Shown piece by piece: positions 4,683 through 62,840 of a stretch of 64,000 bases of DNA. The stretch's first letter is position 1; every line of letters starts with the position of its first letter. A program made the position numbers and the translations under genes. The notes under the pieces were generated by a model. That model was not told where the DNA came from and searched no databases. It saw nothing but the letters and a program-made list of their open reading frames with translations. The stretch comes from a virus, in the IMG/VR virus record IMGVR_UViG_3300024346_000022, positions 32,748-96,747 of that record; one strand, given 5' to 3'.

Positions 4683-4711
4683 ATTATAGAAGATTTATAA
4701 AGGGATGTCAA
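4683..4711 (-). promoter_or_regulatory. Sigma70-type early promoter for gp32
   Basis: TTGACA-17 bp-TATAAT, overlapping the stop codon of the upstream endonuclease. Confidence 0.8.
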
Positions 4712-5358
4712 GCCCTCGTCCAACCTTTATGGTGATTTCTTTTACCACAAATTACATGATGCATAGCTGAATCGGTGAGATTATTTTGTTCGCAAAAATA
4801 TTTGAGATTATTTGCGGTATGTATTTTTCCTTCCGGATCTTTCATTACCCAAGTTTTATTATCTCTTGCTACTTTTCTTTCTCGTATTTGCTCCCTTTGC
4901 TCTTCTGTAAGTTTTTTGCCAAGCATTCCTTTTGGAGATATTCTTCCCATATGTGATTTACTCATTTTTCTTTTGGTTTCTTCAGATGCTTTTCTATTTT
5001 TAGCAGAATCTGATATTTTCTTTCTAACTTCTGGTCTTTTTGCTGGGTTATTTTCGCCAATCATATTTTCACTTGGAGTAATATAATAAAACTTTTTAGA
5101 AGTTTGCCTTGCTTTGTTGGCAAAATGAGGATTTTTATCTACTTCATAAAAGTCGTGAAGAACACATTCTGCCTCAAGTGCATCTTCTACGCTATCAAAA
5201 GTTTCTAAAATGATTTTTTGAGTTGGTTTAAAAGTTTTGTCTCTAAAACTTCCAAAATAATTTATATCTTCTTCTGGAAGACATTTACATTCTCTTTTTC
5301 CAATATATCCATTACCAAACTCTTCATAAGAGTAATAGACATAAAAATACTTTTTCAT
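4708..5358 (-). CDS. Free-standing GIY-YIG-like homing endonuclease with NUMOD3 repeats
   Basis: N-terminal YVYY...GYIGKR, YFGS, EALEAE-like motifs, and SEETKRKMSKSHMG NUMOD3; inserted upstream of gp32. Confidence 0.8.
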   Translation of the reverse strand: MKKYFYVYYSYEEFGNGYIGKRECKCLPEEDINYFGSFRDKTFKPTQKIILETFDSVEDALEAECVLHDFYEVDKNPHFANKARQTSKKFYYITPSENMIGENNPAKRPEVRKKISDSAKNRKASEETKRKMSKSHMGRISPKGMLGKKLTEEQREQIRERKVARDNKTWVMKDPEGKIHTANNLKYFCEQNNLTDSAMHHVICGKRNHHKGWTRA

Positions 5359-5390
5359 TCTTCTCTAATCGGGTGACATAAGTATTTATA

Positions 5391-5450
5391 CAAGAAAGGA
5401 GCACCGAAGCACTCCAATCTAACCTGAAAAGTGTCACCCGATCAGGCATT
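5391..5450 (-). ncRNA. Candidate small RNA (hairpin plus UUCG terminator) antisense to the leader of endonuclease 4708-5358
   Basis: AATAAATA (5453-5460), CCTGA/TCAGG stem, GGAGTGC-TTCG-GTGCTCC plus U-rich tract, then TATAAATA (5383-5390); same layout at 31505-31605. Confidence 0.55.
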
Positions 5451-5465
5451 TGTATTTATTACCAA

Positions 5466-30587: not shown

Positions 30588-30797
30588 TTAGTTCTTATAA
30601 AGGTCTTCTAATCTTTCTTTGGTGAGGTCAACATATAAAAGTTCATCACCTTCTTTTGGTGCCTCTGGGTGTTGAGGTTTTCTTGGAGTTCTCATTTCTT
30701 TATTGATGGATTGGATGTTTCCCCACATCATCGCAAAGGCACCTCCGGCGATGACTGCGAAGAATGTGAAGTAGATGAAGATTAGAAAGGGGTTCAT
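30588..30797 (-). CDS. DUF2973-like membrane protein
   Basis: TM helix, AFAMMWGNI, HPEAP..GDELLYVDL. Confidence 0.7.
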   Translation of the reverse strand: MNPFLIFIYFTFFAVIAGGAFAMMWGNIQSINKEMRTPRKPQHPEAPKEGDELLYVDLTKERLEDLYKN

Positions 30798-31504
30798 TTT
30801 CTTCCAATCCTCCAACCATCACCAGGGCATTCTAACACAAGTTTACAATTTCCGAGACCATCATTCCACCATTTTTTACCTTTCTTTGCTTCACTTAATT
30901 TTTTCCGGGTTTCTTCTGTTGGTTGTTTACCTTTATGTGCTTCACTCATTTTCTTTCTAGTTTCTTCTGAATATTTTCTTCCTATCATATATTGATTACC
31001 TTTTTGTGCCTCACCAACTTTTCTTTTAGTTTCGTCTGAAAGTTTTTTACCAACATTCCAAGTATTTCCAATCATTCTCTGTCTGATTTTATCTTTGTGT
31101 TCCTCCGATAGTTTTATTCCTTTTCTTTTTTCACTTATTTGTCGTTTTTGTTCTTCACTCATTTCTTTCCCATAGTTGGGATTTTTTTCACCGACTCTTA
31201 GTTCACTTAATTTTTTTCTTGTTTCTTCACTTACTAAAAGTCCAGAAACACCTTCACCACCATCGGTTCTGTTTCTTAGTATACCAGTTCTCAAATCTTT
31301 TCTACCAAATACGACGATCATATAGATTTCGTGTCTAAATGCTTCTGTTTCGGTTAAGTTCTTTTTAAGAAAGATTATTCTTGATTTATCTTTCGGTGGT
31401 CTTATATCACCTTTATTTTTATTAAATATTCTATTTCCTTTACCTTTACCAATATAGTAAGGGGTACTGTCTTCACGCAAATATGCGTAGGTATAGTAAT
31501 ACAT
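30794..31504 (-). CDS. Free-standing GIY-YIG-like homing endonuclease with NUMOD3 repeats, downstream of psbA
   Basis: YYTYAYLRED..PYYIGKG...LRNRTDGGEG; several SEETRKKxSE repeats. Confidence 0.85.
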   Translation of the reverse strand: MYYYTYAYLREDSTPYYIGKGKGNRIFNKNKGDIRPPKDKSRIIFLKKNLTETEAFRHEIYMIVVFGRKDLRTGILRNRTDGGEGVSGLLVSEETRKKLSELRVGEKNPNYGKEMSEEQKRQISEKRKGIKLSEEHKDKIRQRMIGNTWNVGKKLSDETKRKVGEAQKGNQYMIGRKYSEETRKKMSEAHKGKQPTEETRKKLSEAKKGKKWWNDGLGNCKLVLECPGDGWRIGRK

Positions 31505-31538
31505 TTCTACTCTGTTATGGTTCGCAATACTATTTATA

Positions 31539-31595
31539 CAAGAAAAGGTGCCGAAGCACCTCTTTCACCTGATAGATGCGAACCACACAGGTATT
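31539..31595 (-). ncRNA. Candidate small RNA (second copy of the module) antisense to the leader of endonuclease 30794-31504
   Basis: TATAAATA (31598-31605), ACCTG/CAGGT stem, GAGGTGC-TTCG-GCACCTT plus U-rich tract, TATAAATA (31531-31538). Confidence 0.55.
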
Positions 31596-31605
31596 AGTAT
31601 TTATA

Positions 31606-31633
31606 TAAAAAAAGGAACTCCGAAGAGTTCCCT
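31606..31633 (-). terminator. psbA intrinsic terminator
   Basis: GGGAACTC-TTCG-GAGTTCCT followed by a T-run. Confidence 0.8.
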
Positions 31634-31659
31634 TATTATACCATTATTTGGTTTTTATA

Positions 31660-33671
<2,012 letters not shown>

Positions 33672-33830
33672 TTGTTAAAAAGGGGGTAAGTATGAGTTCG
33701 GGGGACGAACTTGGTATAGTATACTCCACGATACCCTCCGTCGTGGATATGAGGGATGCTTTACTTCTCTTGATCCCGGTTTGAGAAGACACGGTTCTCA
33801 GAATTGTCACATTCCTTAACCCCGTGTATG
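33672..33830 (-). promoter_or_regulatory. Long structured psbA 5' leader (possibly a PhotoRC-type motif)
   Basis: About 160 nt with hairpins TCCACGA/TCGTGGA, AGTTCG/CGAACT and TTCTC/GAGAA. Confidence 0.5.
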
Positions 33831-61308: not shown

Positions 61309-62649
61309 TTAACCTTTTGTTTTCTTACCTCTTCTTTCTCTGTGCTCTTCTCTACGGGCCCGCTGCTGACCGCCACCCAATGCTAAAGCACCACTTGGAT
61401 TATCATATCTATTAAGCCTAGCACCAGACCTTTTGTGTTCTGGGAGTTTTTCATCTACCTTTGCCTCAATAATACTACCAATCATCTCAGCATCCAACTC
61501 AAGCATTACATAATTTGCTTCTTCTAAGGTGTCTGCGTGACCCTGTGAGAGGAGATACTCAAGCACGAGGTCATAGGCATCATATTCTTCCTTCTTCAGT
61601 TTACTGGGTGCTACAGTATTACTTAATGTATTGCTTGGAGCAACTTTAGGAGCCTCTGTTGGGGTTGGTGGTGCTGTTGAAGTCGCAGCACTTAATTTAG
61701 CAGCAAGTGGGGCAGTAGGAACTCCAAAACCACTAGGACGAGATGTTACTGCTGGTTTTGATGCTGATTTTCCTGCCTCTACGCCAGCTTTGACTGCCGC
61801 TTCTTCGGCACCCTTTGTATCTCCTGCTGCCTTTGCCGCCGCTCTTGCTGCTTTTGCCGCTCTCAATTCTGCACTAGTTGCCGCCCTTCTTTCAAACTTA
61901 GTTCCACCTGCGGTAGTTCCAATAGCAGGTTTTGTGGGTCCTGCTGGTGTTGGTTTGGGTGTTGGTGTTGGTGAAACTTTAGCGGGAGCAGCGGCGGCGG
62001 GTCTGGCGGCAGGAGCAGCAGCAGGGGTTCTGGTAGGAGGAACGGGTTTATCTTTATCGACAGGAGGAACGAGTTTATCTTTATTGACAGGAGGAACAGG
62101 TTTAGCGGAAGATTTAAAAAGTGGAGTAGCGGGTTTTGCTTCTTTTGATGGCAAATAAACAGTTCTATTCCCACTTTGAGCTGGGAAAAGTGTTCTTCCT
62201 CCAACATTAATTTGTTGAGTTTCTCCGGGCTTAAGTGGTTTATTTACAACAACACCTTGTCTCCCACCAGAGACAGCTCCAAATCCTCTTCCTTGTGCTG
62301 TTCCAGTTGTAGCCCCCCTAACATTAATACCCCTACCTTGCCCAAGAGCAGTTTGTACTTGTCCTTGTGCGGTAGAACGGGTTGCTTTATCTTTGTTTGA
62401 TTGTGCTACTGCTTGATTATAACGAGCTACATCTGGGTTTCCATAATTCCTCGCCGGAGCCTCCTCCAAATAAGACTCAAACATCTCTTCCCAAGTATAA
62501 TCACTCAGGTCATAACCTTCTTCGATGAGTGTATTGACCCACTCTTCCACTTCTTCCCATACCTGTTCTTCGGTGAGTTCTTGAGGAGCATATACTGCCT
62601 GATATGCCTCCATCAATCCTCTAACATCATTACCTGTAAGTGTAGACAT
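61309..62649 (-). CDS. Late, probably capsid-internal protein with acidic propeptide-like ends and a Pro/Ala-rich core
   Basis: TATAAATA upstream; EEVEEWVNTLIEEGYDLSDYTWEEM and EEYDAYDLVLEYLL...ADTLEEA motifs. Confidence 0.6.
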   Translation of the reverse strand: MSTLTGNDVRGLMEAYQAVYAPQELTEEQVWEEVEEWVNTLIEEGYDLSDYTWEEMFESYLEEAPARNYGNPDVARYNQAVAQSNKDKATRSTAQGQVQTALGQGRGINVRGATTGTAQGRGFGAVSGGRQGVVVNKPLKPGETQQINVGGRTLFPAQSGNRTVYLPSKEAKPATPLFKSSAKPVPPVNKDKLVPPVDKDKPVPPTRTPAAAPAARPAAAAPAKVSPTPTPKPTPAGPTKPAIGTTAGGTKFERRAATSAELRAAKAARAAAKAAGDTKGAEEAAVKAGVEAGKSASKPAVTSRPSGFGVPTAPLAAKLSAATSTAPPTPTEAPKVAPSNTLSNTVAPSKLKKEEYDAYDLVLEYLLSQGHADTLEEANYVMLELDAEMIGSIIEAKVDEKLPEHKRSGARLNRYDNPSGALALGGGQQRARREEHRERRGKKTKG

Positions 62650-62840
62650 CTTTTCTTTTAAGTTCTTTATAGTTTTATTTATAAAAAAAGGGTCTCAAGG
62701 ACCCTTATCTAACCAAACATAAGAATAGTCGTGATCTCCAAAAAGAACATCATCATATTCGGCAGCATCTTTATAACATTTTATAATTTCTTCTTCACAC
62801 CACTCATCGTAATTTCCATCACTATTGAGTATTTTTGGTG

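Follow-up and report, generated by a model that had tools for sequence, protein, structure and literature searches.

A portable control module before homing endonuclease genes of T4-like cyanophages, with a late promoter between the arms of a predicted leader-masking helix

Homing endonucleases need to be silenced until late in infection, and the hairpin combined with a late promoter in phage T4 is the textbook device for this. The genes for I-TevI, I-TevII, I-TevIII and segB in T4, and mobE in Aeh1, have hairpins that sequester the ribosome-binding site, and late promoters let late transcripts escape this control (PMC2988022). Hairpins containing TATAAATA were also reported by Dassa et al. 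(2009) before free-standing endonuclease genes at “fractured gene” loci of the ocean metagenome. These hairpins have two mutually complementary conserved motifs and were read as mobE-like translational control; at one locus, the endonuclease had been lost and the hairpin retained (PMC2677866). Here, we describe a 5' control unit of approximately 100 nt, composed of a distal box, a small hairpin, a terminator hairpin, a late promoter, a leader, and the ATG of an endonuclease gene. It occurs twice in the window, by which we mean the whole 64,000-nt stretch of viral DNA that was analyzed (positions 32,748 to 96,747 of IMG/VR record IMGVR_UViG_3300024346_000022). Our loci resemble those of Dassa and colleagues in being the 5' UTRs of environmental, cyanophage-like endonuclease genes with a hairpin, an embedded late box, and complementary motifs. 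However, their 16 loci, which we compared by description and not by sequence, were simple hairpins, and no distal box, internal terminator, nested hairpin, or covariation analysis was reported for them (PMC2677866). The masking principle was already known, and what is new is the compound, portable architecture and the possible small RNA.

The source phage is a freshwater T4-like cyanophage whose nearest isolate is Synechococcus phage S-SRM01 (Kyanoviridae), and the gene neighborhood on the contig includes gp32, a helicase loader, a late-promoter accessory protein, and psbA. The features of both module copies are listed in Table 1. The copy 1 endonuclease gene is an insertion between DUF1825 and gp32. 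The copy 2 gene adjoins psbA, directly downstream, as F-CphI does in S-PM2, and its product matched Pfam NUMOD3 (2.3e-25) and PHROG 314 (“homing endonuclease”). Two GenBank entries in isolates carry the name “translation initiation factor 2” for what look like misannotated NUMOD3-repeat homing endonucleases, one in S-SRM01 (MW015081, 62515-63273) and one in B23 (MN695335, 41542-42165). The psbA gene itself (31660-33800, minus strand) is split by four group I introns (Rfam RF00028; 31737-31984, 32022-32251, 32488-32740, and 32803-33037) and has a PhotoRC-II motif in its 5' region (33711-33800). At 31663-31635 on the minus strand, between the stop codon of psbA and its terminator, we also saw a sigma-70-type promoter close to consensus (TTGATA, 17 nt, TG-n-TATAAT; 11 of 12 positions match). 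Transcription from this promoter is predicted to start within the 5' stem strand of the psbA terminator, so that its transcripts would bypass the terminator and continue into the copy 2 module hairpin. This promoter is kept in the related locus L003, but not in L004 or L005.

Table 1. Positions in the window of the two module copies, their parts, and the neighboring genes
Feature	Position	Strand	Basis	Remarks
Copy 2 module, whole	31605-31502	-	sequence	
Distal late-promoter-like box TATAAATA	31598..31605	-	sequence	6 nt before hairpin; family consensus nnTAAATA
Small hairpin, stem (A)CCUG/CAGG(U)	about 31592-31567	-	fold	loop carries anti-leader core
Small hairpin, CCTG	31591-31588	-		
Small hairpin, 16-nt loop	31587-31572	-		
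Small hairpin, CAGG	31571-31568	-		
Anti-leader arm (5' stem strand and 5' part of loop)	31577..31593	-	duplex and fold	17 paired nt
Intrinsic-terminator-like hairpin AAGAGGUGC-UUCG-GCACCUUUU	31539..31564	-	fold	followed by CUUG tail, U-rich
Proximal consensus late promoter TATAAATA	31531..31538	-	sequence	between the arms
Leader	31530-31505	-		26 nt; ATG at 31504
Leader arm	31508..31526	-		complements anti-leader arm; from about predicted +1 of late mRNA to 3 nt before AUG
Copy 2 endonuclease gene, free-standing	30794..31504	-		236 aa; GIY-YIG-like N-terminus and five NUMOD3 repeats
psbA stop	about 31661	-	sequence	
psbA own terminator hairpin	31611..31634	-	terminator scan	immediately upstream of copy 2 module
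Copy 1 module, whole	5356..5460	-		same scaffold as copy 2
Copy 1 box AATAAATA	5460-5453	-		
Copy 1 anti-leader arm	5445-5432	-		
Copy 1 terminator	5415-5391	-		
Copy 1 late promoter TATAAATA	5390-5383	-		
Copy 1 leader arm	5378-5365	-		
Copy 1 ATG	5358	-		
Copy 1 endonuclease gene	4708..5358	-		216 aa; NUMOD3 and I-HmuI-like NUMOD domain

All of the elements of copy 2 that a sequence-only reading of this stretch had listed are present on the minus strand, and the pairing that it had proposed, 11 bp with a further 3 bp past a bulge, is now extended. The loop UGUGGUUCGCA pairs with the leader UGCGAACCAUA over 11 bp, including one G-U. In ViennaRNA predictions, this helix grows past single-nucleotide bulges by 3 + 3 bp to 17 bp, and the added pairs involve CUG in the small stem and AGAGUA ahead of the AUG. 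The 108-nt read-through RNA of copy 2 is predicted to fold at -38.1 kcal/mol (z = -5.7), a value that none of 200 shuffles matched. In copy 1, the arm CUGAUCGGGUGACA pairs with the leader UGUCACCCGAUUAG over 14 bp, the read-through fold has a z of -4.5, and the hairpin equivalent to the terminator was also called by a terminator scan. In both copies, the long-range helix predicted for leader-containing RNA encloses the terminator hairpin; the arms lie approximately 55 nt apart with that hairpin between them, and the 5' arm is folded in a hairpin of its own. A short RNA that begins at the distal box and ends with the terminator is predicted to form two hairpins (-20.7 kcal/mol, z about -3.5 to -3.6), while the leader alone is unstructured (-1.2 kcal/mol). 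Predicted cross-pairing between copies 1 and 2 is weak, at -11.7 and -13.8 kcal/mol compared with -25.4 and -23.3 kcal/mol for the cognate pairs.

Both window copies score about 91-96 bits with the family covariance model described below, and a search of the 96.7-kb contig with this model found no third module copy. One weak match at 62647-62725 (minus strand) was rejected as a third copy; it is a plain terminator and late promoter without arms. There, a terminator hairpin is followed by TTTTTTTATAAATA before a 446-aa low-complexity gene of structural type, and such junctions of a terminator and a late promoter are a general feature of the source phage. No Rfam family matched 31502-31605 at E <= 0.1, and the only nearby matches were the four group I introns and PhotoRC-II.

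To sample the family, relatives of the endonuclease were retrieved from IMG/VR by a protein-guided search. This gave 125 loci, the majority of which carry the module. A plain MAFFT alignment of 49 seed cassettes, not fitted to structure, was submitted to RNAalifold, and a covariance model built from it was used to search cyanophage contigs and isolates, yielding 101 distinct cassettes. Cultured carriers of the module are S-B68 (Synechococcus WH7803), S-SRM01, and B23. For the 49 cassettes, RNAalifold returned the loop–leader helix as the sole consensus structure, with compensatory changes at eight of nine pairs. Across the 101 cassettes, the 9-bp core is 98.1% paired, and double changes occur at all nine core pairs (4-58 sequences per pair). 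The core pairing score was reached by none of 500 shuffles, and slid controls were not close either. In an alignment-free test, the mean duplex energy was -23.9 kcal/mol for cognate and -12.9 kcal/mol for non-cognate partners. The helix is 14-18 bp long, and in most variants its end lies 1-9 nt before the AUG. S-SRM01 carries both cassettes of the window; its copy-2-like cassette has a matched 1-nt deletion in loop and leader, and its small stem is CUCU/AGAG in place of CCUG/CAGG. The earlier proposal that loop and target had changed jointly on a conserved scaffold, which implied selection for pairing, is borne out by the compensatory changes at nine of nine core pairs and by this paired deletion. 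As judged from the sequence record, the complementarity of the module is kept by selection for RNA pairing. An ordinary junction of a terminator and a late promoter, with complementarity arising from chance or shared ancestry, might have been considered, given that terminator-TTTTT-TATAAATA junctions without arms exist elsewhere, such as the one at 62725-62647 before the 446-aa gene. However, pairing is retained in 101 variants with dozens of arm sequences, shuffle and slide controls never match it, and cognate and non-cognate energies are well separated. Together with the RNAalifold result on a structure-free alignment, these controls rule out chance or mere ancestry, and we regard this explanation as refuted, with next to no probability left to it.

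The small hairpin also co-varies. Its 5' half is of 26 types among the 101 cassettes, and the cassette's own 3' half outperforms the median foreign one in 101 of 101 cases, by a mean of 3 kcal/mol. The anti-leader core is presented in the loop of this hairpin, with a mean unpaired probability of 0.70. Since both the small hairpin and the loop–leader helix co-vary, the 5' strand is kept complementary to the 3' strand of the hairpin and to the leader. The terminator hairpin is kept in relatives despite differing sequence. In close relatives, the terminator has diverged more than the arms, and this gives no sign of diversifying selection for new specificities.

The pattern of mismatches is informative as to the molecule in which pairing takes place. 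At non-Watson–Crick positions in the core of the 101 cassettes, G-U outnumbers A-C by 18 to 2, which indicates that the pairing is that of RNA and of the sense strand. Full duplexes have 78 G-U pairs and no A-C among 1x1 mismatches, and the sense-strand duplex is the more stable one in 71 of 101 cassettes. These counts are not expected of DNA symmetry, and they weigh against an inverted repeat that acts as DNA, whether as paired autorepression operators (as for I-TevI), a cruciform, or a recombination signal. For operators there is a precedent, as I-TevI binds an operator overlapping its own late promoter (PMC2988022), and here the arms flank the promoter. However, the operator model does not predict that the 3' half of the small hairpin co-varies, and the same arms stand before unrelated endonucleases (L031 and L013:4130, see below), so the arms do not track protein specificity. 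A DNA-level role is consequently very improbable.

The proximal TATAAATA, near-invariant in sequence, lies between the arms in all 101 variants. The distal TAAATA is exact in 100 of 101 cassettes, at 5-7 nt before the stem, and adjacent positions vary freely. In the T4 family, the 8-bp late box sits at the -10 position; T4 itself often has an A at -13, and Aeh1 has a/gC as its consensus at -13/-12 (PMC2988020). The distal nnTAAATA fits these known late-box variants (PMC2988020), and nCTAAATA boxes also precede other genes of the source phage. If the spacing is that of T4, transcription from the distal box would begin at the base of the small hairpin, and that from the proximal box at the first nucleotide of the leader arm. 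We considered whether the distal box might simply supply stop codons for an upstream ORF. This was ruled out for copy 2 and for L003-L005, where a terminator separates the psbA stop from the box, and the box is thus retained where no upstream ORF could need it. What we infer is the activity of promoter and terminator, translational repression, and its timing.

With these elements in place, the module is most likely a device of the T4 I-TevI/mobE type, in which a late promoter lies between the arms of what is predicted to be a leader-masking helix. The 5' strand and loop of the upstream hairpin would pair over 14-18 bp with the endonuclease leader, masking a stretch from about the first transcribed base to a few nucleotides short of the AUG. 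Transcripts with both halves, which could arise when transcription begun in the upstream gene or at the distal box reads through, would fold into the long-range helix around the terminator hairpin and would be untranslatable. Most transcripts started upstream would be expected to end at the terminator first. RNA from the proximal late promoter would have no mask and an unstructured leader, and would be translated late. This would be the logic of T4 I-TevI, segB, and Aeh1 mobE, to which the cyanophage module adds a terminator of its own and an upstream half that folds by itself. This half (box, hairpin, and terminator) may also be released as an RNA of approximately 57 nt that masks the leader in trans, likely as an add-on. 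We consider a cis mask on read-through RNA to be the best-supported core function, and probably the correct one. It is preferred because a late promoter between the arms matches the arrangement at T4 I-TevI/II/III, segB, and Aeh1 mobE. For the same reason, the alternative that the sequence-only reading had set against its small RNA, a cis hairpin on read-through transcripts, fits the module, as it is the known mechanism in T4 (PMC2988022).

The parallel with the T-even masks extends to the type of phage (T4-like), the type of gene (an endonuclease), a helix over the translation-initiation region of upstream-derived transcripts, and a TATAAATA whose position leaves the 5' arm out of late transcripts, although the promoter here is a predicted one. 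However, the arms of the T-even masks form one local stem, whereas those of the cyanophage module are separated by about 55 nt that include an intrinsic terminator. The 5' arm of the module is part of a separate, co-varying hairpin, which is preceded by a second, invariant box of the late type. The cyanophage helix covers the 5' end of the leader, unlike in the T-even cases, where a strong Shine–Dalgarno sequence is masked. The module also differs in being portable and common to at least four kinds of endonuclease. Shine–Dalgarno signals of the source phage are weak and coverage by the helix is partial; in copy 1, 9 nt remain between the end of the helix and the AUG, and the ribosome-binding site is partly covered. 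With a terminator between the arms and the psbA terminator upstream of copy 2, read-through RNA should be rare, which weakens the selective reason for a mask that acts in cis only. The invariant distal box, the co-varying small hairpin, and the terminator are all dispensable for a mask that acts only in cis. As modeled, the distal box, the loop-presenting hairpin, and the terminator form a unit of approximately 57 nt with classic small-RNA anatomy.

An alternative is that the upstream half is a dedicated small-RNA gene of approximately 57 nt, which would repress or damp the endonuclease mRNA in trans with a specificity of its own per element, and that pairing in cis is incidental. Several features of the module point in this direction. 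The nearly invariant distal box is spaced so that a T4-type start would fall at the foot of the stem, boxes of this kind stand in front of other source-phage genes, and the box persists past the psbA terminator. The small hairpin co-varies and shows the core of the arm in its loop, the short RNA is predicted to fold into two clean hairpins, and in both copies a GC-rich hairpin with a U-rich tail is predicted, which would provide a putative 3' end. Geometry offers a further parallel. In IS10, the hairpin loop of RNA-OUT pairs with the extreme 5' end of RNA-IN and spreads down the stem strand over the start region. Here too, a hairpin loop would pair with the 5' end of a mobile element's mRNA, with a target that starts at about +1 of the late mRNA. 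However, RNA-OUT is made from the opposite strand, where complementarity is automatic, whereas in the module both partners are on the same strand and complementarity is kept by compensatory change.

Precedents for RNAs of this kind exist in other phages. The c4 RNAs of phages P1 and P7 differ by matched changes in RNA and target. In the immI operon, the antisense RNA c4 and its target share a strand, with c4 encoded upstream, and the loops of c4 pair with the downstream gene at its ribosome-binding region (Citron and Schuster 1990, as cited in PMC8198154); in these respects, c4 is a precedent for the arrangement seen here. As far as it is described in that source, c4 belongs to the lysogeny immunity circuit of a temperate phage and its action in trans is demonstrated, whereas the module has a selfish endonuclease as its target in a lytic phage, and its action in trans is putative. 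Closer to home, the CfrI antisense RNA links psbA and F-CphI in cyanophage S-PM2 (Millard et al. 2010, as cited in PMC2984593). CfrI and our copy 2 are thus both proposed non-coding RNAs at a psbA/endonuclease junction of a T4-like cyanophage. However, CfrI, as characterized in the citing paper, is approximately 225 nt long, lies on the opposite strand, and involves a different endonuclease, whereas the wobble bias in the module points to the sense strand.

Other observations count against a dedicated small-RNA gene. In the 49 seed cassettes, 37% of the distal boxes have a C at -12, which is off the cyanophage consensus NATAAATA known as the late box of S-PM2 (PMC2984593). Some cassettes have an architecture without a distal box, one genome has two cassettes with identical arms, and the upstream half is almost never found alone (all described below). 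Cassettes within a genome also show no orthogonality. In 54 cassettes from 16 genomes, with cross-pairing defined as an ordered pair at or below -17 kcal/mol, cross-pairing within genomes was 6.4% (13 of 202 ordered pairs) compared with 6.7% between genomes (permutation P = 0.54). Given that the two rates are alike, this test does not separate action in cis from action in trans. It does bear on the earlier suggestion of a separate specificity for each element, which holds insofar as the two window copies differ in their predicted pairing, while selection for such specificity was not detected in this comparison. Overall, we consider it unlikely that the upstream half is solely a small-RNA gene with incidental pairing in cis. 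A more limited proposal, that a free RNA of approximately 57 nt from a candidate gp55-type late promoter acts in trans on the mRNA of its own endonuclease and represses it through pairing of the loop with the 5' end, has somewhat better prospects, and we hold it tentatively, at a little under even. As a model, such an RNA is plausible in view of the conserved box upstream, the covariation of the small hairpin, and the terminator. Trans action and a cis mask are compatible, as one does not exclude the other.

The claim that the cassette travels with the endonuclease as part of a mobile unit was supported by the wider sample. Every further cassette recovered from flanking DNA stands before an endonuclease ORF, and these ORFs are of at least four kinds, namely two GIY-YIG-like NUMOD3 groups, a canonical GIY-YIG, and an HNH enzyme. 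The comparison with endonuclease-free alleles that had been suggested is also in agreement with this claim. Among 77 related loci holding both DUF1825 and gp32, the spacing between these genes is 63-94 nt in 75, with neither endonuclease nor cassette, and the cassette is absent from all 75 of these endonuclease-free DUF1825|gp32 junctions. The only two cassettes in the 77 loci are found elsewhere, directly before endonuclease ORFs. Complete or large genomes have one to nine cassettes each, and related cyanophages differ widely in their endonuclease load. For example, S-SRM01 has six and the source contig two, and G004 (the contig of L013) has nine in 136 kb, two of them with identical arms.

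However, the unit of endonuclease and cassette is not rigid. Near-identical cassettes with the same arms (L031:2366-2485 and L013:4130-4249) precede two unrelated endonuclease ORFs, from which we conclude that the module recombines independently of the ORF that it controls. L098 and L105 are endonuclease alleles of the copy 1 type without a cassette, in which the ORF begins 9-40 nt past the stop of an upstream DUF1825-like gene; in L100, L104, and L110, a cassette is inserted immediately past the same DUF1825-like stop codon. A second architecture (L022, L064, L067, L069, L076, and L082) lies about 100 nt upstream of the endonuclease ATG. In this group, the terminator hairpin is long (GUGGGCAGCAAC ... 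GUUGCGUAAGUCCCAC, followed by a U run) and carries the anti-leader arm in its apical loop; TATAAATA comes after the terminator, followed by the complement abutting the AUG, and no distal TAAATA box is present. In retaining both arms and the late promoter, these cassettes speak for the cis mask. Finally, L078:922-1046 is a solo upstream half, with a CATAAATA box, a hairpin, and a terminator and without a proximal promoter, leader, or endonuclease; the gene after it has a strong GGAG ribosome-binding site. For the arm of this solo half, a possible partner is the leader of a different cassette of that contig (-19.6 kcal/mol, third of 101), which would be in keeping with a free small RNA. However, the search of about 3 Mb yielded no other solo half but more than 100 full modules, and a single case is too few to argue for free small-RNA genes.

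In these cyanophages, the T4 device of a hairpin and a late promoter appears to be packaged as a self-contained, exchangeable module that moves with endonuclease genes and is swapped between unrelated ones, with up to nine occurrences per genome. More than 100 natural variants make the covariation record unusually rich for this three-way RNA constraint, in which one strand has two alternative partners. The module is also a candidate for the first regulatory small RNA driven by a late promoter in T4-like phages. If action in trans is true, selfish endonuclease genes of cyanophages would carry programmable, portable pairs of small RNA and target with dozens of specificities, and the RNA could also act between co-infecting phages.
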